This document shows, piece after piece, positions 744 to 16,240 of a stretch of DNA of 44,214 nt. The position numbers and the translations under genes are program-made. The DNA is from a virus. Location of the stretch: positions 1-44,214 of IMG/VR virus record IMGVR_UViG_3300045988_038936, one strand, 5' to 3'. The notes below the pieces were generated by a model, which did no database searches, was not told where the DNA came from, and was given only the letters and a program-made list of their open reading frames with translations. Positions within the stretch are counted from its first letter, which is position 1. Each line of letters begins with the position of its first letter.

Positions 744-749
744 AAAAGC

Positions 750-2066: not shown

Positions 2067-2092
2067 CAAGCCTGTCCCACCCTGTCTACACT
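2063..2092 (+). promoter_or_regulatory. Promoter P1, TTGACA-N18-TACACT, part of a ~60-bp promoter-leader module repeated at 3493-3556
   Basis: -35 2063-2068, -10 2087-2092, conserved CATCAGCAC at 2098-2106 and SD GAAAGGAAC at 2110-2118. Confidence 0.65.
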
Positions 2093-2122
2093 CCAGCCAT
2101 CAGCACACGAAAGGAACCAGGC

Positions 2123-2167
2123 ATGCACACCATCATCCGCACCGCCAACCACATCGTCAACAACTAA
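2123..2167 (+). CDS. Candidate 14-codon leader ORF (MHTIIRTANHIVNN)
   Basis: Uses the module's SD GAAAGGAAC in the same position as the methyltransferase start in the P2 copy; followed by a hairpin. Confidence 0.3.
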   Translation: MHTIIRTANHIVNN

Positions 2168-2175
2168 CCACCCAC

Positions 2176-2202
2176 GGGGGCCTGCAACACCAGCAGGCCC
2201 CC
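2176..2202 (+). terminator. 10-bp perfect-stem hairpin between leader ORF and dnaB (possible attenuator)
   Basis: GGGGGCCTGC / GCAGGCCCCC, 7-nt loop; no U-tract. Confidence 0.4.
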
Positions 2203-2223
2203 ACCAACACCCCACACGAGCAC

Positions 2224-3498: not shown

Positions 3499-3524
3499 CA
3501 ACCCCGTCCAGCCCTGTCTACACT
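3495..3524 (+). promoter_or_regulatory. Promoter P2, TTGACA-N18-TACACT (second copy of module)
   Basis: -35 3495-3500 overlaps dnaB stop; -10 3519-3524; CATCAGCAC and GAAAGGAAC follow as in P1. Confidence 0.65.
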
Positions 3525-3556
3525 CCAGTCATCAGCACACCGAAAGGAACACAACC

Positions 3557-4396
3557 ATGAGCATCCTCAGCCTCTGCTCAGGCTACGGCGGACTAGAGCT
3601 CGCAATCCAAGCCACCTTCAGCCACCAAGCCATTGACGCAGCATGCGACAACTACAAACCCGCCCGCCAAGTCCTCACGCGCCACTACCCAAACACCAAC
3701 ATCCACACAGACGTCAACGACCCCAGCCTCCTCGACTACAAAAGCGACATCGTAGCCTTCGGCTTCCCCTGCCAGGACCTCTCCCGCGCCGGAAAACAAG
3801 CCGGACTCAACGGGGCGCGCAGCGGCCTCTTCTACGCCTGCATGAACGTCGTCCGAGCCGTACAGCCCACCGAAGTCATCGTCGAAAATGTCCCCCAAGC
3901 CGAAAAGTACGCCAACGCCATCAACCAAGAGTTCTGGGACGCCGGATACACCACCAGCTGGGCGCGAGCCAAAGCCCACGAGGCAGGACTCCCCCACCGT
4001 CGCGACCGCGTATTCATCTACGCCCACAAACTCGGCCGCCCAGAACGCGCCACAGCAAACGAGCCCACCTACACGCCAACCAGCCCCACATTCCCAACAC
4101 CCACCGTCGTAGACATGGGATGGGGACGCACAGCACAAGAATGGGAAACCTGGCTCCAAGCACAGAAAACCAAGCACAACAACGGCAACGGCCACGGACG
4201 AAGCCTCTACCAAATGTGCCACGAAGGAACCCTCCTCGTCATGGAACACCTCATGGGGCTCCCCACCGGCTACATCACCAACCAAGACATCAGCGACGCA
4301 GCAAAACGCCGCCTCCTCGGCAACGGAGTGGCCCCCCAGCAAGGCCACCTCGGCATCTACCGCGCATGGAAGCAGCACACAGAAAGGAACAGCTAA
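3557..4396 (+). CDS. DNA (cytosine-5)-methyltransferase
   Basis: Motif I LSLCSGYGG, motif IV GFPCQDLS, motif VI ENV, RRDRVF, motif X GNGV. Confidence 0.9.
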   Translation: MSILSLCSGYGGLELAIQATFSHQAIDAACDNYKPARQVLTRHYPNTNIHTDVNDPSLLDYKSDIVAFGFPCQDLSRAGKQAGLNGARSGLFYACMNVVRAVQPTEVIVENVPQAEKYANAINQEFWDAGYTTSWARAKAHEAGLPHRRDRVFIYAHKLGRPERATANEPTYTPTSPTFPTPTVVDMGWGRTAQEWETWLQAQKTKHNNGNGHGRSLYQMCHEGTLLVMEHLMGLPTGYITNQDISDAAKRRLLGNGVAPQQGHLGIYRAWKQHTERNS

Positions 4397-4599
4397 TGGT
4401 CGCCGAACCCGTCTACACCCTCCACCCCGACATGATCACCCTCCGCCAAGCCGAAGCCATCACAGGCATCGACTACAAGGCCATCCATGACGCCGCCCGC
4501 AAAGGCCACATCTACTGGAACCGCTACGACGTAGCACCCACCTTCCGCGTCAGCCGACGCGACACCATCACCTGGGCCGCAAACCAAAAGGCAGCATGA
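4396..4599 (+). CDS. Small HTH DNA-binding protein (excisionase/MerR-like fold)
   Basis: TAATG overlap with upstream stop; ITLRQAEAITGIDYKAIHDAARKGHI. Confidence 0.6.
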   Translation: MVAEPVYTLHPDMITLRQAEAITGIDYKAIHDAARKGHIYWNRYDVAPTFRVSRRDTITWAANQKAA

Positions 4600-4600
4600 C

Positions 4601-5275
4601 ATGGCAAACCACGCCGCAACATGCCACATCTGCGAAAGCGCATTCACACCCAAAAGCGTCAACGCAAAATACTGCTCACCCAAATGCAGAAAAGAAGCCA
4701 AACGCAAAGCCGACAGAGAATTCATGCGCAAATGGCGAGCACAAAACCCAGAAAAGAACGCAGAGCGACGCAAACGAGAAAGCCCCGAGGCTCGCCGCCA
4801 ACGCGTCAAACGATGCCGCGACAGCAATCCCGAACGGGCTCACGCCTTAGCCAAAGCTTACCGCCAAGCAAACCTCGCATCAGAGACCGCACGCATGCGC
4901 AGGTGGCTAGAAGACCCAGAACACAAAGAGCGCCATCGCGCAAACATAAAGAAATGGGTCGTCCGCAACCCGGACAAGGTAGCCGCCTACAGGGTGCATA
5001 GAGCGCAAGCTGAACTCGAAGGCAACGCCACACAAAAGCTCATCAACGCAAAATGGGAAGCGAGCAACAAGACTTGCTGCCTCTGCGGTACGCGGATCGA
5101 CGACACCCTCAGGTCACCCCACCCCATGTCACTCACCATCGAACACCTCACCCCCATCTCACGAGGAGGAACCCACAACCTCGACAACATCGACTTCGCA
5201 CACCGCACCTGCAACACCAAAAAGGGAGCCAAGACGCTCGACGAGTACCGAGAATGGGTGAAGCGGGCCACCTAA
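4601..5275 (+). CDS. HNH endonuclease with N-terminal zinc-ribbon and basic region
   Basis: CHIC...CSPKC; C-terminal CCLCG...IEHLTPISRGGTHNLDNIDFAHRTCNTKKG. Confidence 0.85.
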   Translation: MANHAATCHICESAFTPKSVNAKYCSPKCRKEAKRKADREFMRKWRAQNPEKNAERRKRESPEARRQRVKRCRDSNPERAHALAKAYRQANLASETARMRRWLEDPEHKERHRANIKKWVVRNPDKVAAYRVHRAQAELEGNATQKLINAKWEASNKTCCLCGTRIDDTLRSPHPMSLTIEHLTPISRGGTHNLDNIDFAHRTCNTKKGAKTLDEYREWVKRAT

Positions 5276-5571
5276 ACAGCACTCAAAGCGCCCCGTGGAG
5301 CCAAAAACAGGCCCCGCGGGGCCAACTTCACTTCTCAAACTTGCACGCAACCAGATTTCCCATGACGCGTAGCGGTCGGCTCTGGCGGGTGGGGGGGTTA
5401 TCCCCTGGGGTTGCTGGGGTTTGTTTTTCTGCTGGTGGTTATTTCGTCGTCGTGATTTTTGGTGTTTCCGCTGGTCAGGTGTGTTGTGTGTGTTTGCTTG
5501 GTCTTGTGTTTGTGTGAGCTTGTGTTGGTGTGTTAGTTGCGTGCGCGTGCGTGTGTGTTGTGTGTACATGT

Positions 5572-5592
5572 GTTCGATGGTGTAGGTCACGT
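5572..5592 (+). promoter_or_regulatory. 21-bp box GTTCGATGGTGTAGGTCACGT, copy 1, ends 20 nt before the -35
   Basis: 19/21 identical to 6724-6744, same distance to the following promoter. Confidence 0.55.
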
Positions 5593-5612
5593 TGGTTGTT
5601 GGTGGTTGTGGG

Positions 5613-5643
5613 TTGACGTGAGCTGTCTCGTGTGGCGTATGGT
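5613..5643 (+). promoter_or_regulatory. Promoter TTGACG-N19-TATGGT with CATCAGCA leader element
   Basis: -35 5613-5618, -10 5638-5643, CATCAGCA 5650-5657, SD GGAAGGAAC before ATG 5699. Confidence 0.55.
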
Positions 5644-5698
5644 TTGGGTCATCAGCAACACAGCCCCGACGGCGGGGCGAACAGGAAGGAACAGTGAG

Positions 5699-6508
5699 AT
5701 GAGCAAGGCGGCGATGCGCATGGTGGTGGCCCTGGTGCTTGGGGTTATGGGCCTGACGGGTTGTGTGCCTGCCTATGCGGCTGAGGACACCGCCCCCGCT
5801 GGTGGGTGGGTGCTCGCTAGTACTGGTGCCCCCGTTGACGTGTCTGAGACTCCCGCGTGCGAGTCGGAGGATCAGGAGTACGGTCCGTGCTTGTGGGACG
5901 CCCGCACCATGGGGAACGGTTCGGGGCGTTCGTTCATCGTTGAGGAGGACGGCAGCGTCTCGTATCTGAGGTGGCGTGACGCCCGCGAGGTCGCGTTTCC
6001 GGGATGGCTGTGGGTAGGCACTGTTGAGGCCGCTGACGTGACTGGCCTGCCCGCATGTGCGGACGTGAACGGTGAGGTGACCTGCCAGCGGGATGGCCGG
6101 TACGTGCTCGAGGTGAACACTCGCGCGTGCACGCAGACCATCACCACCACTATGGGTGACCGCTACATCCCCGGACCCAGTGTCGCTAAGGCCCTCAGTG
6201 AGGGTTGCTCTAAGACCACGATCAAGGGGCACAGTGATGAGGCAGGACTCCACGGTGCACGCTCTAGTGTGTCTATGGAGGTTGTGCACTCACCTGCGGT
6301 GAGCGCGGTTGTGGATGGGCCTGTAGATAACCCGACCTCTGCTAGTCGTGACGTGGTTGTGGGTCCTGTGGATTCAGGTGTCAAAGACAACTATGACCGC
6401 GAGATTCTGGTGGCGGCTGCTGTGGTGACTTTGGGTGGTCTCGCGTTAGCTGTGTGGGCTGAGCGTCGGGCTACTCGGCGTCGGGTGGGTCGCTTCGGCT
6501 CGAGGTGA
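5699..6508 (+). CDS. Secreted lipoprotein with C-terminal membrane anchor (candidate superinfection-exclusion or surface-modifying protein)
   Basis: Signal peptide + lipobox MSKAAMRMVVALVLGVMGLTGC; 6 further Cys; C-terminal ILVAAAVVTLGGLALAVWA followed by ERRATRRRVGR. Confidence 0.75.
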   Translation: MSKAAMRMVVALVLGVMGLTGCVPAYAAEDTAPAGGWVLASTGAPVDVSETPACESEDQEYGPCLWDARTMGNGSGRSFIVEEDGSVSYLRWRDAREVAFPGWLWVGTVEAADVTGLPACADVNGEVTCQRDGRYVLEVNTRACTQTITTTMGDRYIPGPSVAKALSEGCSKTTIKGHSDEAGLHGARSSVSMEVVHSPAVSAVVDGPVDNPTSASRDVVVGPVDSGVKDNYDREILVAAAVVTLGGLALAVWAERRATRRRVGRFGSR

Positions 6509-6527
6509 GTGGTCCTCTCTCTTGGTG

Positions 6528-6566
6528 CCCCCGGTTCCGCTTCGGCGGGCCGGGGGGTTTGCTTTG
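6528..6566 (+). terminator. Rho-independent terminator after lipoprotein gene
   Basis: CCCCCGG..CCGC-TTCG-GCGG..CCGGGGG stem-loop followed by TTTGCTTTG. Confidence 0.7.
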
Positions 6567-6723
6567 TCTTCCCGTGGTGGGCGTCGTGAGGGCAGCTGGA
6601 GTGCTTTCGGGGTGTGAGTGGTGCCCACGTATGGGTGGGGTGCTGTGGGGCGCTCAGATTGGCTCCTGTGGCCTCTCGTGCATGTGGGTGCGTGGTGTAG
6701 GAGTGTGGCGCTGCCGAACAGGC

Positions 6724-6744
6724 GTTCGATGACGTAGGTCACGT
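6724..6744 (+). promoter_or_regulatory. 21-bp box GTTCGATGACGTAGGTCACGT, copy 2
   Basis: Same sequence and same 20-nt spacing to the -35 as copy 1. Confidence 0.55.
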
Positions 6745-6764
6745 GAATTGGTGCCCAATCTGAG

Positions 6765-6795
6765 TTGACTCAGCCCGTCTAGGTGTGTGTATAGT
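6765..6795 (+). promoter_or_regulatory. Promoter TTGACT-N19-TATAGT with CATCAGCAC leader element
   Basis: -35 6765-6770, -10 6790-6795, CATCAGCAC 6801-6809, SD GAAAGGA before ATG 6844. Confidence 0.6.
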
Positions 6796-6843
6796 TAAGC
6801 CATCAGCACGGGGCAGTCAGCCCCAACAGAAAGGATCACAGCA

Positions 6844-7554
6844 ATGAGCACCAACGACTACATCACCGACGTCACCGCCAACCTGGCCGAGTGGGGTATC
6901 GACTACCGCGAGACCACTGAGGGTGTCAGTGTCGGCAACATTCACCTCGAGATCGCCGAGGATGGATACCGCCCCACTGGCACTATCTTGGACGGCACTG
7001 AGGCGGTTGCCATCACCAGCGACGCGGACAAGGCCGCCGCGCTCCTGGCCTTCCCGCTGGCCCGCAGGGCGTGGGACCTGGGGTACGCTGGAAGCTTCGA
7101 GATTGACGTACTGGGTGGCGACCTGGACATGCGGCTGAATTTTGGCACCAGTGACGTCACTATCTCCGGCGACGTCAACGCTAGTGAGGCATTCACGGTG
7201 TCAGAACACCCCTTGTTCCGGCAGGCTGTGGACATGGAAGACTTGGGCGCCGTCATCACTTCCGTCGAACTGGCCTACTCTTCCCCCGAGGAAGCATGGC
7301 AGATACTGTGCGCGTCCAGCGATTTCGAGCACGAGTCGTGGCAGGATATCGTTGAGCGACTGAATGACTCGGTTAGGTTCTACGAGGGTGACCGACTCAC
7401 TAGGGTCGAGTCCTGGGATACGGAGCTGGTCGTCTTGGTTGAGGACTATAACCCTGAGTCCCCGGTCCGCGTGATCGACGTTGCACAGGCGACCGACACG
7501 ACGCACTGGTCTGCTAGTGACGTTGCTGCCGCCGTCCTGTGCGCGATCGCCTGA
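6844..7554 (+). CDS. Hypothetical, strongly acidic protein (236 aa)
   Basis: SD GAAAGGATC; by my count about 45 Asp+Glu versus 12 Lys+Arg. Confidence 0.7.
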   Translation: MSTNDYITDVTANLAEWGIDYRETTEGVSVGNIHLEIAEDGYRPTGTILDGTEAVAITSDADKAAALLAFPLARRAWDLGYAGSFEIDVLGGDLDMRLNFGTSDVTISGDVNASEAFTVSEHPLFRQAVDMEDLGAVITSVELAYSSPEEAWQILCASSDFEHESWQDIVERLNDSVRFYEGDRLTRVESWDTELVVLVEDYNPESPVRVIDVAQATDTTHWSASDVAAAVLCAIA

Positions 7555-7560
7555 TATCAG

Positions 7561-7606
7561 GTAGCCCGAATGGTTGTAGCGGGGGTTCGATTCCCTCGCC
7601 GGGTAC
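7561..7606 (+). other. tRNA-derived fragment: D-arm-like GTAGCCCGAATGGTTGTAGC joined directly to a T-arm GGGGG-TTCGATT-CCCTC and a 3' acceptor-like strand; no anticodon arm
   Basis: Canonical T-loop TTCGATT; no complementary 5' acceptor strand and no anticodon stem-loop, so not a functional tRNA. Confidence 0.5.
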
Positions 7607-7643
7607 GACATTCATTCATCTACCCACACGTAGGAGTCACACC

Positions 7644-7940
7644 ATGATCGCCACCGAGGACCGTCTCGCTCACGCGCTCGAGACAGCTGTAGACGACATC
7701 GAATTCAGTCTGGACGCGGCGTCCATTGATTTCGAGGTCATGACGTCACCGAACACTAACCAGTACATCATCGTCTACGCGGAGGGTGAGCGCCACGCCT
7801 ACGTCACCGCCGAACTGTCTTGGGGTGGTGAGCCCATGGTGTTTGTTGACATCTACAGTGTGGACGCCGATGGTGCGGAGTGCTGGGTGCGCGGCGACCT
7901 GACTATCGACGCAGCCATCCCATACATCATCAACGCCTGA
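7644..7940 (+). CDS. Hypothetical acidic protein (98 aa)
   Basis: ATG 7644 after GTAGGAG; about 19 Asp+Glu versus 3 Lys+Arg. Confidence 0.65.
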   Translation: MIATEDRLAHALETAVDDIEFSLDAASIDFEVMTSPNTNQYIIVYAEGERHAYVTAELSWGGEPMVFVDIYSVDADGAECWVRGDLTIDAAIPYIINA

Positions 7941-7968
7941 ACATCAGCGAACCGAAAGGAACGAAACC

Positions 7969-8445
7969 ATGAGCACTGTAGCCGAGCGCGTGCGCCTAGC
8001 ATTCAACGCGGCCACGGGAGAAAGTAAGCCCGCATCATCCTCATGGGTGGCCGCTAATCCGACGCACTACCTGGAAGTGCGGAACATTCTGGGTACGCGG
8101 CGACGCGAAGCGGTAGCCCAAGTAACGGCATTGGATTCGCTGGGCATCAAGTATCTGGCCGTAAGGAGCCAGGAGTGGACCAGTGTCGACGCGATGACTC
8201 ACCTATTAAACGATGCTGAACGGCGAGTGAAGGCCCTTGTGGCGCTGGCCGACATGCTCGGCTCAAGCGGCTGGCACGTCAGCCCCATCCGGGAACCGCT
8301 AACCTGCGGCGGCCTGGTCGCCACCAAGGATGGGAATCGGGTTCAGGTGTATTCGAATGGCGACGTGAGCGGACATGACGACGTAGCGGTCCGGTTCGCC
8401 AAGGACGCATTCGAGGTGGCGCTCGAGCGAGCACAAGCCAGCTAG
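7969..8445 (+). CDS. Hypothetical protein (158 aa)
   Basis: SD GAAAGGAAC 6 nt upstream of ATG. Confidence 0.7.
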   Translation: MSTVAERVRLAFNAATGESKPASSSWVAANPTHYLEVRNILGTRRREAVAQVTALDSLGIKYLAVRSQEWTSVDAMTHLLNDAERRVKALVALADMLGSSGWHVSPIREPLTCGGLVATKDGNRVQVYSNGDVSGHDDVAVRFAKDAFEVALERAQAS

Positions 8446-8480
8446 TCGGGATGGCCGGCCACGCAGTGTAGTGGCCGCGC

Positions 8481-8724
8481 CACCTCACCTAGAGGATGAT
8501 ACGCAGCGGGAAACGCAGGGATTGCGGAGTAGCGCTTGCGCATGTTGGTTGAGAACTACATAGAGGAACGGCCATAGGTGGCAGGCCCCGCACGCACGGC
8601 GCCGCCTCGCGTAGTCGATACAGTCTGCCCACCTATGAGTCACCTAGACCGCCCTACTGTCTAATATCTACCGACAGAGGTTTGCTGTGATCCATTTTTG
8701 GTCTAGGTGGCCCATAGGTGACCC
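8481..8724. repeat. Six copies of a YCACCTAK motif in a 310-bp non-coding gap, including a 22-bp inverted pair flanking an AT-richer 49-bp spacer
   Basis: Copies at 8485-8493, 8572-8581(rev), 8629-8639, 8640-8650, 8700-8710(rev), 8711-8724(rev). Confidence 0.7.
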
Positions 8725-8754
8725 GAACAGTTCGGGACCTGGAAAGGAACGATC

Positions 8755-9039
8755 ATGGCTAGTGGACACGTCACGTTTGATGGTGTCAGTGAGCCTATCC
8801 ACTACACGTGGATAGGTGAGGCCCTTGCTCAGTCGGGCGCCCCCACGCTCTCAGCTAACTTGCAGTCCTGGGACTTGCTTGACGCCCTGTTCCCCGACAA
8901 TCCCCATCTCTGGAACGTCGGCAAGTACCTCACCCGGTTCGGCCGCAAGGGAGGTGCGAGCAAGCGCGTAGAGGACCTGCGCAAGGCCGCAACCTACCTC
9001 GAACGCGCCATCAAGGCGGAGGAGAACCATGCCAGCTGA
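8755..9039 (+). CDS. DUF3310-like (SaV-like) protein
   Basis: WNVGKYLTRFGRKGGASKRVEDLRKAATYLERAI resembles the DUF3310 signature; SD GAAAGGAAC. Confidence 0.55.
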   Translation: MASGHVTFDGVSEPIHYTWIGEALAQSGAPTLSANLQSWDLLDALFPDNPHLWNVGKYLTRFGRKGGASKRVEDLRKAATYLERAIKAEENHAS

Positions 9040-9262
9040 CGCACCGCTCGAGCACCGCCTCATCACGCACGCGGACATGCGACGCATGCCCGACGGGGTC
9101 ACCGTATACAACGATCTACACGAACCATGGGTTAAGCACGGCCCATGGTGGCACCTCGAGGATGGCGACACTCGCCTACTCGGCACCGAACTCAAGCGCC
9201 TATCAGCGTGGCTGTACACGCTCGAGCCATTCAACCCTGCCCGATACATCCGGCAGCACTAA
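9029..9262 (+). CDS. Hypothetical protein (77 aa)
   Basis: ATG 9029 after GGAGGAG; overlaps the upstream gene by 11 nt. Confidence 0.6.
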   Translation: MPADAPLEHRLITHADMRRMPDGVTVYNDLHEPWVKHGPWWHLEDGDTRLLGTELKRLSAWLYTLEPFNPARYIRQH

Positions 9263-9289
9263 CCCCACACACCGGAAGGAACACACACC

Positions 9290-9754
9290 ATGACCACACC
9301 CATTGATGTCACCGACGTAGCACACCAGCTGGCCCAAATGTGGCCCCACGCGCGCATGCACGTAGCCCCCACGCCCATGGGTCATACGGTAGTGCTTGGC
9401 GCTACCGCAGCGGAACTCACCCCCGATTGGTGGACAGTCCGCAAGCCCTCCCAGCCCGATCGGTTCTGGGGGTACGTCGAATGCGATGAGGTCGTCATCG
9501 CGGACACGCTAGCTGAGGCGAACGCCCATAACCATCATGACTCCGTGCGGGGTCGCGTTACCGCGTTCGATCAGCGCTTGAAGGTGCGGCGCGTCGGGGA
9601 CGCGTACAGCATCACCACGGCGGAATCGGAGACCATCACCATTGCTCCGGTCGGGGGCAGGATCGCCGTGACCGCCGGCGGTGTGACCCATTATGTTGCG
9701 ACGATGGGTAACGCGATCATGGCCACGGGGTCTCTGGTGGCTTCCACGAAGTAG
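9290..9754 (+). CDS. Hypothetical protein (154 aa)
   Basis: SD GGAAGGAAC upstream. Confidence 0.65.
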   Translation: MTTPIDVTDVAHQLAQMWPHARMHVAPTPMGHTVVLGATAAELTPDWWTVRKPSQPDRFWGYVECDEVVIADTLAEANAHNHHDSVRGRVTAFDQRLKVRRVGDAYSITTAESETITIAPVGGRIAVTAGGVTHYVATMGNAIMATGSLVASTK

Positions 9755-9760
9755 CTTCCA

Positions 9761-9836
9761 GAATAGGGGGTTCCCAAAAGAATAGGGGCCTCCCAACGGA
9801 ACAGGGGGTTCCCAAAAGAATAGGGGCCTCCCAGGA
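9761..9836. repeat. Iteron array 1: four head-to-tail 19-bp units (GAAYAGGGGNYTCCCARNR), intergenic
   Basis: Units at 9761, 9780, 9799, 9818; units 1/3 and 2/4 nearly identical. Confidence 0.9.
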
Positions 9837-9847
9837 AAGGAACACAG

Positions 9848-10510
9848 ATGGCAGAACAGGTAACAGTCCACCAGGCACTAAGTAAGGTCATGGGGGACGT
9901 TCAGGCGGTCAAGAAGGACAGCAAGAACCAGGCCCAGCGATTCAACTTCCGTGGCATCGACGCGGTAATGAACGCGGTAGGGCCCGCACTACGCAAGCAC
10001 GGAGTGACCATCCTCCCCGAGGATGTGGAAGTCCACCGCAGCAACGGAACCACAGCAAGCGGAAAGCAGACAGCCGAGGTGATCGTCAAGGTCACCTACC
10101 GGGTCTACGGCCCAGCTGGGGACAGCATCCACGGGAAGGTCGCGGCCGAGGCAATGGACTTCGGTGACAAGGCGATCGCCAAGGCGATGAGTGTCGCCTA
10201 CCGGACGTTCCTCCTGCAGGCGCTCACCATTCCCACGGATGAGCCTGACCCGGACAGTGAGTCCTACGAGAGGGGGGTTCCCAGCGGAACAGGGACCTCC
10301 CAGCGGAACAGGGACCTCCCAGCGGAACAGGGGGTTCCCAAGAGAACAGCGGCCGAGCAGTGCGGAACCATCCTTGACGGGTTCTGCGCCACTCACCACC
10401 TGGACGGCGACAAGGTGCGCGAGGAGTACTTCGCAGCAGGAGGCAAGGCCAACCCGGACATGCTCAGGGCGTGGCTGGCACAGAACTACGGGGCAGGGAA
10501 GGTCCAGTGA
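9848..10510 (+). CDS. erf: ERF-family single-strand annealing recombinase
   Basis: ALSKVMGDVQAVKKDSKNQAQRFNFRGIDAVMNAVGPALRKHGVTI is a typical ERF core; the linker then C-terminal domain follow. Confidence 0.8.
   Translation: MAEQVTVHQALSKVMGDVQAVKKDSKNQAQRFNFRGIDAVMNAVGPALRKHGVTILPEDVEVHRSNGTTASGKQTAEVIVKVTYRVYGPAGDSIHGKVAAEAMDFGDKAIAKAMSVAYRTFLLQALTIPTDEPDPDSESYERGVPSGTGTSQRNRDLPAEQGVPKRTAAEQCGTILDGFCATHHLDGDKVREEYFAAGGKANPDMLRAWLAQNYGAGKVQ
10268..10343. repeat. Iteron array 2: four 19-bp units inside the erf linker coding sequence
   Basis: Units at 10268, 10287, 10306, 10325; 10287-10305 and 10306-10324 are identical but translated in different frames. Confidence 0.9.
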
Positions 10511-10959
10511 GCAAGGAGAACGCACTCCGCAGGGCGGCCATCGCGGCGCACATTGCCAAGGTGGCCTCCCAGGAGAAGAAGAAGGCCCTCAAGGAACTTG
10601 AGGAGTACATGGCCCCGGGCGACACATCCAAGCCCATGATCGACGGCCTCCAGGTCGGTACGGTGAGCGTCAGCGCACCACAGCCCCGCTACCAGGTGGT
10701 AGACGAGAAGGCCCTCGTGGCCTGGCTCGAGTGGAACAAGCCTGACGCCGTACACAAGGTACCCGCCCCATGGTTCGTCGCCACTGCCGCCCTGGATGGG
10801 TTCATCAAACAGACCGGGGAGGTCCCCGACGGGGTAGAGGTCGTTCGGGGTGACCCGCGCATCTCGGTGCGAATCTCAACAGCCCAGGAGGAGGCTATCC
10901 GCGACCTCATCTCCACAGGCGACATCAGCCTCCTCGAAATCGAGGGTGGGGATGTGTAG
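10507..10959 (+). CDS. Hypothetical protein with N-terminal coiled coil (recombination-module accessory; function unknown)
   Basis: GTGA start/stop overlap with erf; KVASQEKKKALKELEEYM helix. Confidence 0.6.
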   Translation: MSKENALRRAAIAAHIAKVASQEKKKALKELEEYMAPGDTSKPMIDGLQVGTVSVSAPQPRYQVVDEKALVAWLEWNKPDAVHKVPAPWFVATAALDGFIKQTGEVPDGVEVVRGDPRISVRISTAQEEAIRDLISTGDISLLEIEGGDV

Positions 10960-11329
10960 AAAGGGGGCTCCCAGGAAAACAGGGCCCTCCCAGGAAACAA
11001 GGGAGCTCGTGTACGAGAGGGACGGTTACCGGTGTGCTCGCTGCGGAAGGTATGCCGGTAACGGCCCCATGAGCATCCAGCACAGGAGGGCTCGTGGCAT
11101 GGGGGGCAGTAAGGCCCCCAACACGAACAGCCCCAGCAACCTTATCCTCCTTTGTGGGGATGGGGTGCGGGGCTGTCACGGGCACATCGAGCAGAACAGG
11201 GATGAGGCGCGGCGTACGGGGTTTAACGTGCCCCAGTTCGTAGCCAACCCTGAAAGCATCCCGGTCGCCTACTGGGATGGAAGGACCTACAAGCTCAACG
11301 ACGAAGGAGGCAGAGAGTGCTTGACATAG
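10952..11329 (+). CDS. HNH endonuclease
   Basis: RELVYERDGYRCARCG...SIQHRRARGMGG...NLILLCGDGVRGCHGHIE; alternative GTG start at 11008 would leave the iterons non-coding. Confidence 0.75.
   Translation: MCRKGAPRKTGPSQETRELVYERDGYRCARCGRYAGNGPMSIQHRRARGMGGSKAPNTNSPSNLILLCGDGVRGCHGHIEQNRDEARRTGFNVPQFVANPESIPVAYWDGRTYKLNDEGGRECLT
10958..11014. repeat. Iteron array 3: two good units plus one degenerate 19-bp unit
   Basis: Units at 10958, 10977 and a degenerate one at 10996. Confidence 0.8.
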
Positions 11330-11541
11330 GTGAGATCACGTACACATACGCGACCATCACGTGCGACTGGCCCGCATGCAGTAACCGCATCAAATTCACC
11401 CCAGGCCCACAGGATGTGCGTCGTGAACGCGCCGACATGTCCACACTGTGCGACCTGGCATCAGATTGGGGTTGGATCATCGATGATGGCCCCCACCCGG
11501 AGACAATCTGCCCCTACCACAATCAGAAGGAGATGAAATGA
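11317..11541 (+). CDS. Small Cys-rich (zinc-ribbon-like) protein, paralog family member A
   Basis: GTG start; CDWPAC ... DWGW ... ICPYH. Confidence 0.55.
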   Translation: MLDIGEITYTYATITCDWPACSNRIKFTPGPQDVRRERADMSTLCDLASDWGWIIDDGPHPETICPYHNQKEMK

Positions 11542-11951
11542 ACACTGACGATAAGGACATCCAGGACCGCCTAGAGCGGATTCGGGCCCGAGTGGACAAC
11601 TGGGAGCGGGGCGAGGGGTATCGACCTAGCGAATTGCCCCAGGATGTGCCCGTGCATGACGTCATCTTTCTCTTAAAGCGCATCGGCGATCTAGAGGCCG
11701 AGGCCCGCGATAAGGGTGTGGGGGCGGAGCGACATAATTCCCCCCTCGAAGAGTGTGAGAGCTCTCGCTCACGCGAATATACCGGCGACGGCAGCGAACT
11801 GCCACCTGGCACCATTGTAATCGACTGCCAGGGCGACTCCTGGCAACGCGGCACCACTCACTGGGTATGTGCCTATGGGCTGCAGGAGGAGCGCCTCGTT
11901 AAGGTATGGGGTCCGTACACCATTGCCTACACCCCCAAGGAGAAGTCATGA
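11538..11951 (+). CDS. Hypothetical protein (137 aa)
   Basis: ATGA overlap, SD AAGGAG. Confidence 0.65.
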   Translation: MNTDDKDIQDRLERIRARVDNWERGEGYRPSELPQDVPVHDVIFLLKRIGDLEAEARDKGVGAERHNSPLEECESSRSREYTGDGSELPPGTIVIDCQGDSWQRGTTHWVCAYGLQEERLVKVWGPYTIAYTPKEKS

Positions 11952-12154
11952 CCGCTATGCTCACGGTTACGCTACTGATCGCGTTCGCTGCGCTCGTGTA
12001 CGCAGTCTATAAGGGTGGCCAGTGCGAGGTGCTCGCCATGGAGAATGCGCGACTCCTTACTTCAGCTCAGAGCTGGAGGACGGCTTACGAGAACGTGAGA
12101 GATGAGAACCGAGCTGTCACCCATCTAGGTGGTATTCGTGGCGAGGACTCGTAA
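11948..12154 (+). CDS. Small membrane protein (68 aa)
   Basis: ATGA overlap; TM segment MLTVTLLIAFAALVYAVY. Confidence 0.55.
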   Translation: MTAMLTVTLLIAFAALVYAVYKGGQCEVLAMENARLLTSAQSWRTAYENVRDENRAVTHLGGIRGEDS

Positions 12155-12497
12155 GAGCGCCAAGGCTGCGGGGGCGCGGTTCGAAAGAGTGGTCGCCGAC
12201 TACCTCGCCGAGGAGTTGGCTGACGACAGGATCGACCGCGCCCCCAAGGCTGGGGCCAAGGATAAGGGCGACATCGCCAACGTCCGCATGGGTGACCACA
12301 AGATCGTCATCGAATGCAAGGATGTGGCACGCATGGACCTGCCGAAGTGGACGCACGAAGCCCAGGTTGAAGCTGAGAACGCGAGCGCTCTCGTCGGCAT
12401 CGTTGTCCACAAGCGACACGGAGTTGCCAAGCCTGGCCAGCAATGGGCTACAATGACACTCGGAGACCTCACCAGACTCCTGAAAGGAAACCAATGA
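12129..12497 (+). CDS. Hjc-like PD-(D/E)XK Holliday junction resolvase
   Basis: GARFERVVADYL ... KGDIANV ... IVIECKD matches the archaeal-Hjc type motif order. Confidence 0.7.
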   Translation: MVFVARTRKSAKAAGARFERVVADYLAEELADDRIDRAPKAGAKDKGDIANVRMGDHKIVIECKDVARMDLPKWTHEAQVEAENASALVGIVVHKRHGVAKPGQQWATMTLGDLTRLLKGNQ

Positions 12498-12682
12498 AAA
12501 CCATCCCCGGCTACCTCAGTAAGAATGAGGCGGCCCACATGCTCGGCATCACCCGCCGAACACTCGACCGACACATCCAGAAGAGCAAGACACCCACCTT
12601 CCGATTCGTCGGAGACCCCACCATCTACGTCCAAGAACACGACATCAAGAAGCTCTTCTCCCCCATCCGAAAGGCAAACTAA
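12494..12682 (+). CDS. Small HTH DNA-binding protein
   Basis: ATGA overlap; LSKNEAAHMLGITRRTLDRHIQ. Confidence 0.65.
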   Translation: MKTIPGYLSKNEAAHMLGITRRTLDRHIQKSKTPTFRFVGDPTIYVQEHDIKKLFSPIRKAN

Positions 12683-12684
12683 CC

Positions 12685-13101
12685 ATGGCATGCGACATCA
12701 CCGTCGAAGGCAACCTCGGCCAGGACCCTGAGGTCAAGTACACGCAGTCCGGACAGCAGATCACCGAGCTCCGAATCGCCGCAACAGCATCCCGCAAGAC
12801 CCAGGACGGCAGTTGGGAGGACGACGGAGACCCCCTGTGGGTCACCGCCTCCTTCTGGGGTGAGCAGCACGGCCACCTCGCCGACACCCTCAAGAAGGGC
12901 GACAAGGTCACCGTGACCGGCCTCCTCATCCAGCGCGGATGGGACGGCAACGACGGCCAGCGACGCACCAGCCTGGAAGTGAAGTTCCCCCGCTTCCGTG
13001 GCGTCATCCCTCGCCGCAACAGCCAGCAGCAAACCGGATTCAACGCCCCCAAGGGCGGCCAGCAGGGCGACCCCTGGGCACAGGCTGGCGCACCATTCTG
13101 A
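12685..13101 (+). CDS. ssb: Single-stranded DNA-binding protein
   Basis: OB-fold N-terminus ITVEGNLGQDPEVKYTQSGQ...; Gln/Gly-rich tail ending DPWAQAGAPF. Confidence 0.85.
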   Translation: MACDITVEGNLGQDPEVKYTQSGQQITELRIAATASRKTQDGSWEDDGDPLWVTASFWGEQHGHLADTLKKGDKVTVTGLLIQRGWDGNDGQRRTSLEVKFPRFRGVIPRRNSQQQTGFNAPKGGQQGDPWAQAGAPF

Positions 13102-13102
13102 C

Positions 13103-13396
13103 GTGCACCTCAAACGCAAGACGACACACCCCACCTCCAGGGGACAGGTCATCTGCGACGCCTGCTTCACCACAATCAGGCAAGGGCTCATGTACCGGAG
13201 GGACACCTGGAAGGACGGAACCTACCACTGGTCCCTCCGGTACTGCCCAGACTGCTGGCTCATCCTCGACGAGGTAGAAGCCACAACACACCCCACCTAC
13301 GGCGGCCCAGGCGCCGAACACTACGAGCAATGGGCGGCCACAAACACGGAAATCAGCAAGGCTCAGGCATGGATGATGCGCGCATGGCCCAGCTAG
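13103..13396 (+). CDS. Hypothetical Cys-containing protein (ICDAC ... YCPDCW)
   Basis: GTG 13103 directly after the ssb stop. Confidence 0.5.
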   Translation: MHLKRKTTHPTSRGQVICDACFTTIRQGLMYRRDTWKDGTYHWSLRYCPDCWLILDEVEATTHPTYGGPGAEHYEQWAATNTEISKAQAWMMRAWPS

Positions 13397-13406
13397 AAAG
13401 GTACAC

Positions 13407-13610
13407 ATGGTAGACATCAAGCTCCACGGCACCCAGTGGATCGCCCGCATCGAATGCACCCAGTGTGGCATCACCCGCATCGAGCAGGCGCACCCGCGCA
13501 CCAAGCCGTGGGCGGCAGTCGAATCAACCATCAAGACCACGGCTCGTACTCTCGGCTGGAAAGTCGGGGCCGAGACCGCCATCTGCGGAGCATGCAGGAG
13601 GAACAAATGA
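13407..13610 (+). CDS. Small zinc-ribbon-like protein, paralog family member B
   Basis: SD GAAAGGTAC; CTQC ... LGW ... ICGAC. Confidence 0.6.
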   Translation: MVDIKLHGTQWIARIECTQCGITRIEQAHPRTKPWAAVESTIKTTARTLGWKVGAETAICGACRRNK

Positions 13611-13828
13611 CCACTATCTACCAAGCCTACGATCTTTTAACGAACACCAGGCAAGCAACAGTGAAGTGCGACCAATGCGGTAAGCGTGCGTCAATCACTA
13701 TCAATCCAGGCAGTGCATACGAGGACAACCAGAGGGAACTGGTCGACACCCTCCTCTCATATGGCTGGGACTTTGAACTCACCAGCGACGGGCACTGCCT
13801 ATGCTCGCAGCACAAGGAGGAGAAGTGA
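13607..13828 (+). CDS. Small zinc-ribbon-like protein, paralog family member C
   Basis: ATGA overlap; CDQC ... YGW ... HCLCSQH. Confidence 0.6.
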   Translation: MTTIYQAYDLLTNTRQATVKCDQCGKRASITINPGSAYEDNQRELVDTLLSYGWDFELTSDGHCLCSQHKEEK

Positions 13829-13989
13829 CCAAGACGTGGCGCTACATCGATGCGCGGTGCACCTGGAAGCCCCTCGCCCACTACCTCACATGGAAGTGGA
13901 GGCGACAAGGTTACAGGACCGCATACGTCTCAGTGAGCCCTTGCAAGGCGCTCGTTGGGGCGCTAGACTACAACCATTCCGGTGAGTGA
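13825..13989 (+). CDS. Hypothetical protein (54 aa)
   Basis: GTGA overlap with upstream stop. Confidence 0.4.
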   Translation: MTKTWRYIDARCTWKPLAHYLTWKWRRQGYRTAYVSVSPCKALVGALDYNHSGE

Positions 13990-14013
13990 CTCCGCTGGAT
14001 GTGGGATAGGTGA

Positions 14014-14051
14014 ACGGCCCGGGGATTGACCAAGATGTCTCCCCGGGCCGT
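14014..14051 (+). terminator. 12-bp perfect-stem hairpin (ACGGCCCGGGGA / TCCCCGGGCCGT, 14-nt loop)
   Basis: Read directly; no U-tract, so a terminator or regulatory role is uncertain. Confidence 0.4.
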
Positions 14052-14083
14052 TGCCATACTCTGGATAGAAAGACAAGACACCA

Positions 14084-16240
14084 ATGACCCCCCTTGATGA
14101 AGCCATCATCGAGAATGACCTTCTCCCCGAGGATCAGCGCCTCACCAACGTCGAGCTCGCCGAGAAGTTCAGCACCTCCGAAGCGTCCGTCCGGCGCCAC
14201 CGCGCCAAACTGAAGAGGCGAGGCGCCCCCGACCTCAACCATGACCACTTCTTCAACGACGTCCCCGTGGACGCGATCGTGCAGCGCGGGAAGACGATCC
14301 GCCTACCCGACGGTTCCTACGAGAAGATCACGTGGAAGCCGGGCGCCGTCGAGATGGCCGAGGCCAAGTCGTTGTCCTACGACGACCTGGAGCCTGTCTT
14401 CCGGGAGCCTCTCCTGCCGAAGCCGGCCCCGATCGTCACGGACGACGAGGACACTCTCGTGGTCTGCATGGCGGACTTCCAGGTCGGAAAAGCGTTAGAA
14501 GATTCAACTCCGGTCCTGACGACTGAGGGGTGGAAGCGGCACGGCGATCTCCGGCCCGGCATGTCCGTCTACGGGCGGGACGGTGAGCCGAAGCGCATCC
14601 TCGCGGTGACCGGCTCGACCGAGCAGGACCTATTCGATGTCGTGTTCCCGGAAGGCCGGACCCTCCGAGCCACGTCGGGCCACCTCTGGAGCGGCCGCCG
14701 CCGCATGCACCCTAAGGGTGACACCTCCAGGTGGGAGGACCGGGAGATGACTCTCACCACCGAGGAGATCGCCAAGATTGCCCGGATGAAATGCTCCCGC
14801 CTCCGCCCGTTCAAGGTGTGGGCACATCAGCCCGTCGAGCTCCCCGAAGCGGAGCTCCCCATCGACCCCTACATTCTCGGGTTCTGGCTCGGAGATGGGG
14901 ACAAGAATTCCGGAACCATCGCCAAGGGGGCCGTGGACCGCGATCACCTGCTCACTCTTGGACACGAGGTCAAGTCCCGCGAAAACCTCTGCGCCGTGAT
15001 CGTGGACGGTCTGACCAGAGACCTCCGGCTGGCTGGTCTTAAGGGCAACAAGCACATCCCAGAGGCGTATCTGCAGGCGTCCTCCGGGCAACGCCTGGCA
15101 CTGCTCCAAGGCCTCATGGACTCCGACGGGTATTGCAGCCCTAAGAGCGGCTACATCGAGTTCAGCAACACGAACAAGGCAATCATCGACGGTGTCTTGG
15201 CCCTCCTGCATCTGGAGGGGGTTACCCCCAAGGTGACGACCGCCATCGGCCACTACGGCGACATCCAGTGCAAGCAGTACTGGCGTATCCAGTTCCGGGC
15301 CGAGCGTCCCATGTTTCGCCTGGCCCGGAAGGCGGCCCATCAGCGTCCGTCTACGGAGCGTAAGGACCATCGACTGTCCGTGATCGATGTCGTCCCGGCG
15401 GGCCGGGGGATGGCTCAGTGCATTACCGTCGAGGGAGGGGAGTACCTGGCAGGCCGCGAACTAACCCTCACCCACAACTGCGGAAGTGGTGGCGGCACAG
15501 AGGATACGGTTCGGCTCGTGCGCCGCGCAATCGGGGACATCGCGGACGACATCCGCTTCCGTGACCCCTACAAGCGCATCATCCTCGCCGACGTGGGCGA
15601 CAGCACGGAGGGGTTCTGGAACGTCGCCAGCCAGGCTCAGACCAACGACCTGAGCCTGACCGACCAGATCAGGACCGTGCAGCGCCTCTACGCCGAAGCA
15701 CTACACGCCCTCGCCCCTCTATGCTCGTCCCTCTACTACGTGGCCGTCCCGTCCAACCACTGCGCCGTTCGCACCGGGCAGGGCAAGAACTCCCGCGCTA
15801 ATTCCCCCGACGATGATTTCGGGATCATGATCTCCAAGAACATCGAGGACATCATCGCCGGGCGCCCAGGCTATGAGCACGTCACCTTCCACCGCCCTGA
15901 GAAGTGGGAGGAGGCCGTCACCGTGGACGCTGCTGACGGCACCCGCATTGGCTTCACGCACGGCCACCTGGCGGGCCAACAGTCCAAGGTGCCGGGATGG
16001 TTCAGGGACCTCGCGTTCGGGCGCAGGAGTGGTCTCTACGATGCCAGAATCCTCGTCCACGGGCACTGGCACAACTTCGCCGTAAGTCAGGCGGGGGATG
16101 CTCGCTGGATCATCTCCTGCCCCTCCGCCGACCGCGGCTCCGACTGGTGGACGAACCTGTCCGGCGACTCCACCAGGCCCGCAATCCTCACCTTCGAGGC
16201 CCAGGGCGGCAACGCCTCATCCTGGGAACTCTACTCATAG
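14084..16240 (+). CDS. HTH + calcineurin-like metallophosphoesterase, interrupted by an intein
   Basis: N-terminal HTH (NVELAEKFSTSEASVRRHR); exteins carry DFQ, VGDSTEG, SNH, THGH, VHGHWH motifs. Confidence 0.8.
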   Translation: MTPLDEAIIENDLLPEDQRLTNVELAEKFSTSEASVRRHRAKLKRRGAPDLNHDHFFNDVPVDAIVQRGKTIRLPDGSYEKITWKPGAVEMAEAKSLSYDDLEPVFREPLLPKPAPIVTDDEDTLVVCMADFQVGKALEDSTPVLTTEGWKRHGDLRPGMSVYGRDGEPKRILAVTGSTEQDLFDVVFPEGRTLRATSGHLWSGRRRMHPKGDTSRWEDREMTLTTEEIAKIARMKCSRLRPFKVWAHQPVELPEAELPIDPYILGFWLGDGDKNSGTIAKGAVDRDHLLTLGHEVKSRENLCAVIVDGLTRDLRLAGLKGNKHIPEAYLQASSGQRLALLQGLMDSDGYCSPKSGYIEFSNTNKAIIDGVLALLHLEGVTPKVTTAIGHYGDIQCKQYWRIQFRAERPMFRLARKAAHQRPSTERKDHRLSVIDVVPAGRGMAQCITVEGGEYLAGRELTLTHNCGSGGGTEDTVRLVRRAIGDIADDIRFRDPYKRIILADVGDSTEGFWNVASQAQTNDLSLTDQIRTVQRLYAEALHALAPLCSSLYYVAVPSNHCAVRTGQGKNSRANSPDDDFGIMISKNIEDIIAGRPGYEHVTFHRPEKWEEAVTVDAADGTRIGFTHGHLAGQQSKVPGWFRDLAFGRRSGLYDARILVHGHWHNFAVSQAGDARWIISCPSADRGSDWWTNLSGDSTRPAILTFEAQGGNASSWELYS
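14492..15478 (+). mobile_element. Intein (329 aa) with LAGLIDADG homing endonuclease, class-3-type signature
   Basis: Ala1 (ALEDSTPVLT), block B TSGHLW, LGFWLGDGD and LQGLMDSDGY, block F AQCITVEG, block G LTHN then Cys+1. Confidence 0.85.

Follow-up and report, generated by a model that had tools for sequence, protein, structure and literature searches.

Three arrays of a conserved 19-bp repeat in and around the erf gene of oral actinobacteriophages: candidate factor-binding sites that also act as recombination joints

The erf locus of an uncultured oral actinobacteriophage raises the question of what is served by three arrays of a short direct repeat, one of which runs through the middle of a recombinase gene. 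The stretch of DNA analysed (the window) is a circular genome of 44,214 nt. Here, a unit with the consensus GAATAGGGG-SY-TCCCA-RNR is repeated head-to-tail in strict 19-bp register. Tandem Repeats Finder reported 19-bp periodicity at 9760-9833, 10279-10332 and 10960-11008, in agreement with direct reading of the sequence, and the units described in an earlier sequence-only reading are real in both position and register. The features of the locus are as follows.

9748 to 9760, + strand: degenerate partial unit GAAGTAG-CTTCCA, from the sequence read, holding the stop codon of the upstream gene (9290-9754)
9761 to 9836, + strand: array 1, four non-coding units of types A-B-A-B, with a higher-order period of 38 bp, reaching as far as the erf ribosome-binding site; in register, unit starts are 9761 (GAATAGGGGGTTCCCAAAA), 9780 (GAATAGGGGCCTCCCAACG), 9799 (GAACAGGGGGTTCCCAAAA) and 9818 (GAATAGGGGCCTCCCAGGA)
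9837 to 9847, + strand: erf Shine-Dalgarno region; the GGAAAGGAAC stretch starts within the last bases of array 1 and stands where the 5' half of another unit would be
9848 to 10510, + strand: erf, 220 aa, comprising an ERF single-strand annealing core (residues 8-139), a repeat-encoded linker and a 3-helix C-terminal domain
10268 to 10343, + strand: array 2, a run of four units within erf coding for the linker between its domains (sequence read, Tandem Repeats Finder); read in register, the units start at 10268 (GAGAGGGGGGTTCCCAGCG), 10287 and 10306 (an identical pair, GAACAGGGACCTCCCAGCG) and 10325 (GAACAGGGGGTTCCCAAGA)
10344 to 10362, + strand: degenerate fifth unit, 3' of array 2
10344 to 10510, + strand: Erf C-terminal domain, the constant partner of the arrays
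10507 to 10959, + strand: conserved gene of 150 aa that separates arrays 2 and 3 (PHROG 5168; weakly similar to Mu Gam)
10952 to 11329, + strand: free-standing HNH endonuclease gene (PHROG 740 at 1.7e-37), the 5' end of which carries array 3
10958 to 11014, + strand: array 3, encoding HNH residues 3-21; read in register, two good units start at 10958 (AGAAAGGGGGCTCCCAGGA) and 10977 (AAACAGGGCCCTCCCAGGA) and a degenerate one at 10996

Of the 93 intergenic bases, 76 belong to array 1, which stops 11 nt short of the erf ATG (9848); array 2 sets in one codon past the final residue of the Pfam ERF match (PF04404 at 6.5e-22; PHROG 155 at 3e-39). The product of the gene at 10507-10959 has a median identity of 93% among relatives, and HNH starts at a conserved ATG (10952) that overlaps the preceding stop codon in the window and relatives alike. 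The neighbourhood as a whole encodes DNA metabolism (Erf, SSB, a RusA-like resolvase and the Gam-like protein). The Erf C-terminal domain follows an array in every subtype, including phages in which the ERF core has been lost or replaced. An AlphaFold2 model predicted it to be three helices with pLDDT ∼90; this confident bundle has no recognisable DNA-binding fold (best Foldseek E against the PDB, 3.3; nothing in Pfam), and the domain was set aside as a DNA-binding candidate.

The repeats are specific to this locus. All nine exact occurrences of the core AGGGNNNTCCCA in the window lie on the + strand within the three arrays, as do all six in the arrays of the complete relative OR148984, so that units are confined to a single 1.25-kb locus in both genomes. 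Outside the arrays, matches to the 16-nt consensus in the window required three mismatches, which is the chance level. The sequence-only reading had also taken each unit for an interrupted palindrome suited to a dimeric binder; this argument is weak, given that symmetry is limited to GGG-N4-CCC (3+3 bp) in a unit that is otherwise asymmetric.

Arrays were present in all of ∼85 close relatives, phages from oral metagenomes, always on the same strand. A DNA-pattern search yielded 81 IMG/VR loci, and a separate protein-based search yielded 71 loci with an ERF core of at least 86% identity; four of the latter lay on contigs missed by the DNA pattern, and arrays were found in 4/4. Erf homologues at 62% identity or less (n = 8) had no arrays. 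Two array patterns run against bacterial genomes gave unrelated matches at chance level only, so that none of 185,579 species representatives has a prophage or host copy. Within the family, the unit is unchanged across subgroups whose neighbouring proteins are just 27-60% identical, and it is also kept upstream of unrelated genes in L002-type phages. Array 1 contains ∼2-9 units in relatives, with a mode of 4, and the array 2 linker falls into two length classes of 81 and 99 nt, both multiples of 3, the longer having its frame restored by one 18-nt unit. Some phages alternate canonical units with 18-bp units missing the conserved T, from which it follows that not every unit must be intact. An apparent fourth array in L058 was a false positive. 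Array 3 is absent where the HNH gene is absent (L030).

Diversity among relatives indicates the level at which the repeats are conserved. Flanking coding sequence shows the expected excess at third codon positions (0.05/0.03/0.30 for positions 1/2/3), which is lost in the erf linker (0.16/0.15-0.18/0.15-0.18). Array 3 is similarly flat (0.10/0.13/0.14, as against 0.10/0.09/0.32 across the remainder of HNH). In both coding arrays, diversity instead tracks position in the 19-bp unit and matches that of non-coding array 1, where it is 0.145 overall and 0.00-0.07 at core positions, compared with 0.29-0.36 at neighbouring third codon positions; this non-coding sequence thus has under half the diversity of neighbouring synonymous sites. 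Given the loss of the third-position excess and the dependence on unit position, selection acts on the nucleotide sequence. The identical units at 10287-10324 are indeed translated in different frames, and the proposal that nucleic acid rather than peptide is conserved is upheld. A T at unit position 4 is present in 90% of cases in non-coding arrays and in 0/43 where an in-frame TAG would result; coding sequence merely tolerates the unit. Positions 4, 10-11 and 17-19 are polymorphic inside single arrays in which the core is invariant, and the persistence of variable positions beside a fixed core points to purifying selection on the motif and not simple homogenisation. By sequence comparison, the arrays are a family-specific cis element kept by nucleotide-level selection.

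The explanation favoured here, tentatively and with a probability of roughly 0.4, is that the arrays are iteron-like sites for a sequence-specific factor and also serve as a recombination joint. The recognition sequence would be an asymmetric 16-bp element, ATAGGGG-NN-TCCCA with flanking bases, repeated head-to-tail every 19 bp. A factor binding it as double-stranded DNA would occupy successive units side by side, in the way seen at iteron, operator and centromere arrays, and a nucleoprotein structure may thereby be built over the single-strand annealing (erf) gene block. The argument for a binding array draws on the fact that, in both complete genomes, no exact core lies outside the three arrays or on the other strand. 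The 19-bp incC/incA iterons of P1 and the 20-bp parC repeats of pSK41 are protein-binding repeat arrays, and by analogy a 19-bp unit that is repeated without gaps and clustered several times over 1.25 kb appears to fit such systems. We infer a protein reader that acts on DNA rather than RNA. Its binding would act locally, on how the recombination module is expressed or accessed, and main origin firing is not attributed to the arrays. In the sequence-only reading, the arrays were either a replication origin or a multi-site binding platform; given the nucleotide-level conservation, the platform stands as the best reading and the origin does not.

Several observations bear on the origin. A function as iterons of a primary or secondary origin, or as a bound barrier to forks, setting off recombination-dependent replication at erf, as is reportedly proposed for SPP1 oriR, is suggested by the 19-bp unit, several clusters and in-gene linker position, which echo lambda ori and P1 incC/incA, by the presence of one locus per genome, typical of cis-acting genome-level sites, and by the DNA-metabolism functions of the neighbouring genes. 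The gene expected to read such iterons was nevertheless found elsewhere.

815 to 1795: O-like initiator (HTH_36 + DnaT; PHROG 'replication initiation O-like'), assigned by Pfam/PHROG

This gene and that for DnaB span 815-3498, 8 kb from the arrays, which lie in and around erf and neither within nor beside the initiator gene. The arrays also lack an adjoining AT-rich unwinding region: the lowest 50-bp GC content in 9600-11200 is 0.46, as against a genome minimum of 0.30. The latter belongs to the AT-richest 50-mer of the genome (44109-44158), which is followed by three or more 22-bp repeats that lie immediately 5' of the first early promoter and the initiator. The 22-mer was found otherwise in just two viral contigs, both with an initiator of the window type at 91-93% identity, and so co-occurs with initiator type. 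The 19-bp unit, by contrast, is unchanged across three initiator types, even where initiator residues 1-160 are unrelated (OR148984) or the N-terminal half is 30% identical (L058). A replication element at the arrays is accordingly rated very improbable, and the AT-rich segment with its 22-bp repeats upstream of the initiator module is likely, on its sequence features, to be the better origin candidate.

The same comparison bears on the identity of the reader. The two proteins that had been put forward as binders, those at 126-743 and 815-1795, do not fit, given that the unit also stays unchanged in phages without the 126-743 protein; the O-like initiator is not the reader. The nearest conserved helix-turn-helix protein, an HTH_17 protein (12494-12682), was likewise dismissed, being 30-45% identical in array-bearing subgroups with a recognition region that is not conserved. 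Because every phage-encoded DNA-binding candidate varies and the unit does not, the reader could be a host protein.

Two features of the arrays run counter to a DNA-level reading or to a DNA-binding array: all arrays are co-oriented with transcription, most of them abutting translation starts, and 19 bp is a non-integer number of helical turns.

Other roles for the locus were considered and rejected. A homing target of the adjacent HNH does not account for arrays 1 and 2, which are kept both with HNH and without it (L030, L002-type). A packaging site is placed elsewhere by the small terminase subunit gene, which has its own HNH at 41504-42376, 12 kb away across the circle junction. By-eye comparison with LexA, DnaA, KOPS and ECF-sigma promoter motifs gave no fit, and a promoter and terminator scan of 8000-12500 found none at the arrays.

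The repeats may instead be read in mRNA. The units would either catch 30S subunits in the manner of Shine-Dalgarno-like pads or be bound by an RNA-binding factor, and would so tune translation of erf, HNH and other cassette genes. The ATAGGGG..CCC unit resembles the start-associated sequences (SAS) of Cluster K (GGGATAGGAGCCC) and Cluster EF (GGGAAAGGACCCC) phages (PMC3203893, PMC7302621) and, like them, is asymmetric, lies in one orientation in a non-structural region and may hold the stop codon of the upstream gene, as also seen in L003 and L042, where the TAG in unit 1 terminates that gene. Every unit lies on the + strand, and AGGGGGU pairs with the anti-Shine-Dalgarno sequence at -12 kcal/mol or stronger; for GGGGGTT-type units, predicted pairing energies with the 16S 3' tail are -12.1 to -15.6 kcal/mol, compared with -8 to -10.3 kcal/mol for the real ribosome-binding sites of the phage. 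Four of five array contexts abut a translation start, and the ribosome, as an invariant host reader, would explain an invariant unit. However, GGGGCCT and GGGACCT units are equally common and still kept despite pairing poorly (-3.4 to -7.6 kcal/mol), and TCCCA, without a pairing role, is as conserved as the G-run. The arrays end, with their last TCCCA, 14-18 nt 5' of the ATG/GTG of erf and genes X and Y, rather than 3-7 bp from the start, and a separate canonical Shine-Dalgarno (GAAAGGA) lies between; that of erf has a predicted anti-Shine-Dalgarno pairing energy of -10.3 kcal/mol, similar to other ribosome-binding sites in the genome. Array 3 occupies +7 to +63 of HNH, and array 2, inside a gene, is not followed by a conserved start. 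The motif is limited to a single 1.25-kb locus, whereas SAS are dispersed upstream of 10-19 non-structural genes. RNA structure is not in excess, array 1 and its flanks being as stable as shuffled sequences (z = -0.1), and an Rfam scan of 8500-12500 with E up to 1 gave no match. Translation-level action is considered unlikely.

The second part of the favoured explanation concerns recombination. Where cassettes meet, the arrays offer 38-150 bp of near-identical homology, and close relatives differ there by insertions, deletions or replacements. Two independent array 1 x array 2 deletions (L042, L169) have removed the ERF core, and in L002-type phages, which also have an extra gene, a different N-terminal domain lies between the same arrays. 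The gene at 9290, on the left edge of array 1, is present or absent among relatives. In L170 and L171, erf is split by a 1-nt loss within a unit, and the near-identical genomes L122 and L123 differ in copy number by one 37-bp double unit. The arrays therefore serve as joints at which sequence is deleted, domains are replaced and copy number shifts.

These events are also what would be expected of a recombination-prone minisatellite without a reader, one that arose by slippage, possibly from a seed in the 5' part of the HNH coding sequence, then reached cassette boundaries and was kept by concerted evolution and inter-phage exchange, with the promotion of modular shuffling as its sole effect. 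Higher-order periods of 37 and 38 bp are consistent with such a history, as is a possible seed: array 3 unit 2 coincides with the ancestral HNH peptide TGPS, and the TGPS...VYER peptide occurs in distant HNH homologues without repeats. Precedent exists in the PeSL repeats at cassette boundaries (PMC2839356), although no PeSL-like promoter or terminator component was found at the arrays here. Homogenisation should, however, erase variation equally at every unit position, whereas the core is invariant across deep lineages and positions 10-11 and 17-19 are polymorphic within arrays. The diversity of the non-coding array, below half that of adjoining synonymous sites, also counts against a minisatellite. 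A linkage test, the distance-matrix correlation of adjacent segments, gave 0.39-0.46 across arrays and 0.22-0.85 within genes or at array-free junctions. With recombination pervasive even within genes, the test did not single out the arrays as stronger breakpoints than gene interiors. An origin of the pattern by repeat instability and exchange is judged doubtful.

Gene conversion among arrays and inter-phage exchange could mimic part of the conservation signal.

A combination of these ideas, judged unlikely, is that tandem SAS-like units are read by a conserved reader, possibly host-encoded or the ribosome itself, and double as portable joints by which co-infecting phages swap single-strand annealing domains and neighbouring genes. 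The unit would then be a regulatory site and a recombination adaptor at once, carried in frame inside two genes.

If the units are recognised by a specific factor, as favoured here, the arrays would represent a non-coding signal overlaid on coding sequence in all three reading frames and kept family-wide. The deletions, the split gene and the domain swap show phage mosaicism and the domain composition of a recombinase being shaped by short conserved repeats in natural populations, and the likely origin of this phage group is moved to the AT-rich, 22-bp-repeat region beside the initiator gene.

Among known systems, lambda ori has its iterons inside gene O and the P1 plasmid has 19-bp incC/incA iteron arrays flanking repA. 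The present arrays share with both ∼19-bp direct repeats in several clusters within 1-2 kb, one locus per genome, and a position flanking or inside coding sequence at a domain boundary. They differ in that the gene is a recombinase and not an initiator, there is no AT-rich unwinding region, units are contiguous at 19 bp instead of phased at ∼21-22 bp, and there is no co-variation with the initiator DNA-binding domain. Ribbon-helix-helix or Xis/Cox-type proteins bind centromere or operator arrays such as the pSK41 parC 20-bp repeats and the P2 Cox boxes, which likewise consist of clustered, contiguous head-to-tail repeats of ∼20 bp with a copy number that varies between relatives. Unlike these, no partition ATPase or adaptor, integrase or ribbon-helix-helix gene was found nearby (Pfam and PHROG searches of all early-region ORFs gave no ParA, ParM, TubZ, ParB or ribbon-helix-helix protein), and the phage seems to be lytic. 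The PeSL of T4-type phages are single-copy composites of an early promoter and a stem-loop terminator (PMC2839356, PMC4122927). The arrays are tandem, with no detectable promoter or hairpin; both are short conserved repeats bounding gene cassettes that are gained, lost and swapped by inter-repeat recombination. SAS, found in Cluster K mycobacteriophages and Cluster EF Microbacterium phages, are single 13-bp copies, each lying 3-7 bp before the start codon of one of 10-19 scattered genes (PMC3203893, PMC7302621), whereas here 2-9 tandem 19-bp units are confined to one locus, are followed by a separate Shine-Dalgarno and, in two arrays, are translated. Both are nonetheless asymmetric actinobacteriophage elements of no known function, in one orientation, with a purine Shine-Dalgarno-like core followed by CCC; both lie near gene starts of the non-structural region, can hold an upstream stop and are conserved upstream of unrelated genes. 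The arrays could also illuminate SAS, to which no function has been assigned since 2011, the tandem, copy-variable version providing a natural dose series.

Sequence reading and Tandem Repeats Finder located three arrays of a 19-bp head-to-tail unit exactly where the sequence-only reading had placed them, in and around erf, the single-strand annealing recombinase gene (9848-10510). The arrays are far beyond chance and are arranged as follows.

Array 1: 9761-9836, + strand; intergenic, occupying the gap from gene 9290-9754 to erf
Array 2: 10268-10343, + strand; inside erf, beginning one codon after the Pfam ERF match ends
Array 3: 10958-11014, + strand; codons 3-21 of an HNH gene

As a logo, the unit reads G-A-A-T-A-G-G-G-G-[G/C]-[T/C]-T-C-C-C-A-[A/G]-N-[A/G]. 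Nine copies of the exact core AGGGNNNTCCCA are present in the window and six in the complete relative OR148984, always within arrays and on the transcribed strand. Looser matches outside the arrays were at chance level across the whole window; the unit is specific to the array locus. A degenerate unit 5' of array 1 contains the stop codon of gene 9290-9754, and array 2 encodes the linker joining the ERF core to a C-terminal domain of ~55 residues. The conserved HNH start is ATG 10952, overlapping the stop codon of the upstream gene; GTG 11010 is not conserved, being GTC in two related loci (L001 and L042).

Diversity was calculated by codon position for 39 distinct loci aligned across 9290-11329. 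Flanking genes displayed the normal pattern, rising from 0.04-0.12 at the first two codon positions to 0.27-0.36 at the third. Diversity was flat in array 2 (0.10/0.14/0.11) and array 3 (0.10/0.13/0.14), and that of non-coding array 1 was 0.145, less than half the local third-position level, with core positions at 0.00-0.07. When the test was repeated alignment-free, separately for each linker length class, the 120 nt on each side of the linker gave 0.05/0.03/0.30 and the linker itself 0.16/0.15-0.18/0.15-0.18; core-position diversity was zero or nearly so regardless of codon position. The flat profiles of arrays 2 and 3 thus confirm quantitatively the earlier claim that nucleic acid, not peptide, is conserved. 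Linker length is 81 or 99 nt, always a multiple of 3, and an 18-nt unit restores frame in the 99-nt class. T occupies unit position 4 in 90% of non-coding units and in none of the 43 units where it would make an in-frame TAG; the coding imprint on the units is light. The arrays read as a non-coding element absorbed by ORFs into disordered segments.

A degenerate two-unit DNA pattern recovered 81 loci from IMG/VR; almost all of them derive from oral metagenomes of humans, in HMP and later data sets. Run against 185,579 bacterial species genomes, the pattern gave four chance matches only, and a second array pattern again returned only unrelated matches. An independent protein-based search with the ERF core yielded 79 loci. 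Of these, 71 are at least 86% identical, most on contigs with arrays already found by the DNA pattern; the four inspected contigs that the pattern had missed (L122, L123, L153 and L155) all have arrays. No arrays occur in the remaining eight, all at 62% identity or below, and their linkers and C-terminal domains are unrelated. Unit orientation is identical in every locus.

The first and last 55 bases of the window are identical, indicating a circular assembly (62% GC) in which the + strand carries the early genes (36-16240) and the - strand the structural genes. Similarity of the major capsid protein to Gordonia and Arthrobacter phage counterparts (~35% identity), together with the human saliva source of the sole close GenBank relative, Caudovirus D_HF2_7 (OR148984), identifies the phage as an uncultured oral actinobacteriophage.

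The arrays are unstable and coincide with cassette boundaries. Array 1 has ~2-9 copies (mode 4; 62 distinct loci), and near-identical genomes may differ by a single 37-bp double unit. In several loci the ERF core is deleted or split off.

Altered erf alleles: L170 2860-3030; L171 480-650; L042 4840-4960; L169 2690-2800

L042 and L169 differ in their upstream gene and are independent cases of one kind of change: array 1 runs in register straight into the 3' part of array 2, no ERF core is left, and the C-terminal domain remains as a short ORF. In L170 and L171, from different samples, one base is lost in the first linker unit, so that the ERF core stops at a unit TAG and the C-terminal domain becomes a separate 47-aa ORF. 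Either erf is dispensable in these genomes or they are defective. Public-source gene callers report the isolated C-terminal domain as a protein of 47-94 aa. Six L002-type loci carry, between two arrays, an unrelated N-terminal domain without an ERF match by tblastn or Pfam; the C-terminal domain that comes next is of the usual kind, and one more array, with 3-8 units, precedes an extra gene. Loci with and without gene 9290 diverge precisely at the left boundary of array 1, and L030 has neither the HNH gene nor array 3; the sole invariant pairing is an array followed by the C-terminal domain. Such behavior would suit a recombination-prone minisatellite without any reader (a factor recognising the units), a doubtful explanation beside the near-invariant core. 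In a linkage test the arrays were not singled out over gene interiors as breakpoints, because recombination is pervasive across the region.

Several other features of the genome were recorded. Three separate HNH endonuclease genes are present (4601-5275, 10952-11329 and 41951-42376(-)), the last lying immediately upstream of the gene for the small terminase subunit (41504-41941, PF25673), an arrangement shared with HK97-type packaging, which needs both cohesive (cos) ends and an HNH protein. The two strands differ strongly in composition, with a contrast between ~1-5000 and 5000-7000 (GC skew to -0.33, AT skew to +0.42); the sign flips at ~5.3-7 kb, where the + strand turns G/T-rich and gene calls are ambiguous (5537-6508 (+) versus 5159-6289 (-)). 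L002-type phages have a comparable GT-rich ORF downstream of an 8-unit array. The 718-aa protein (14084-16240) is a YonJ-like exonuclease enclosing a terminase-like ATPase segment (~residues 137-467) that resembles a mobile, intein-like insertion: it is missing from the 388-aa homologue in OR148984, and in contig 3300006479_000001 (locus L167 6810-7913) DnaB is interrupted by a related segment (32% identity). A C5 cytosine methyltransferase ORF (3557-4396), found in only two of ten relatives with sequence covering its position, matches the Pfam profile over its first 189 of 324 positions and may be truncated. A 67-nt repeat (2053-2119 and 3485-3551, 82% identical), whose motif recurs in L058, holds a promoter close to consensus (TTGACA-N18-TACACT) and a conserved leader ending GAAAGGAAC. 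One copy precedes the C5 methylase gene and the other DnaB, so DnaB probably starts near 2120, not 1906.

The replication module is ordinary: gene 815-1795, a match to PHROG 'replication initiation O-like', encodes HTH_36 and DnaT domains, and DnaB comes next. Directly upstream of this initiator and of gene 36-743 (also given as 126-743) are features that an origin would be expected to have: the AT-richest 50-mer of the genome (44109-44158, 30% GC), at least three copies, a number possibly collapsed by the assembler, of GTGACACAGGTCTGTGCCACTG, a 22-bp unit that has internal dyad symmetry (44150-44214 and 1-55), and, 35 bp past these, a sigma-70-like promoter TTGACA-N17-TACCAT (90-118). Beyond this genome, just two IMG/VR contigs contain the 22-mer, and each also encodes this initiator (93% identity) together with the 36-743 protein (91%). 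The circle junction, 44109-44214 plus 1-125, is probably the true replication origin or an early control region. The 19-bp unit is unchanged in OR148984, which lacks the 36-743 protein and has an initiator whose N-terminal 160 residues are unrelated, and in L058, whose initiator shows 30% identity; a GC scan found no AT-rich segment adjoining the arrays. Thus, the arrays are unlikely to be an origin served by the O-like initiator, and the sequence-only proposals of an origin here, and of 126-743 and 815-1795 as binders, were not borne out. A replication element with another reader, such as a secondary origin or fork barrier, is improbable.

Around the arrays, no Rfam family was matched, folding revealed no excess RNA structure, and no promoter or terminator was predicted. 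Pfam and PHROG scans of early-region ORFs found no ribbon-helix-helix, ParB-like or integrase genes. An HTH_17 protein was rejected as reader, dropping to 30-45% identity in array-bearing subgroups, as was the Erf C-terminal domain, confidently modelled as a three-helix bundle with no significant fold match. Given that all phage-encoded DNA-binding candidates vary and the unit does not, a host factor or an uncharacterised conserved phage protein is a plausible reader. The arrays are tentatively interpreted (probability ~0.4) as an iteron-like platform at which a putative factor would bind many units, with a local effect on the recombination module, their demonstrated behavior as recombination joints being a by-product.

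The unit is similar in sequence to the start-associated sequences (SAS) of Cluster K (GGGATAGGAGCCC; PMC3203893) and Cluster EF (GGGAAAGGACCCC; PMC7302621) actinobacteriophages, asymmetric motifs of single orientation with a Shine-Dalgarno-like core, a CCC end and no known function (PMC3203893, PMC7302621). This likeness would favor an element acting in translation, as would the predicted pairing of GGGGGTT-type units with the 16S 3' tail, stronger than that of the phage's real ribosome-binding sites. However, the equally frequent GGGGCCT-type units are predicted to pair no more strongly than those sites, TCCCA has no role in pairing, and the defining SAS position and dispersal are not found, making such an element unlikely and at most a tandem variant of the SAS class. 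The arrays are best classed as a variant of known repeat-array elements, whose interest lies mainly in a nucleotide signal that cleanly overlaps two genes in frame, and is increased by the possible link to the unexplained SAS motifs.
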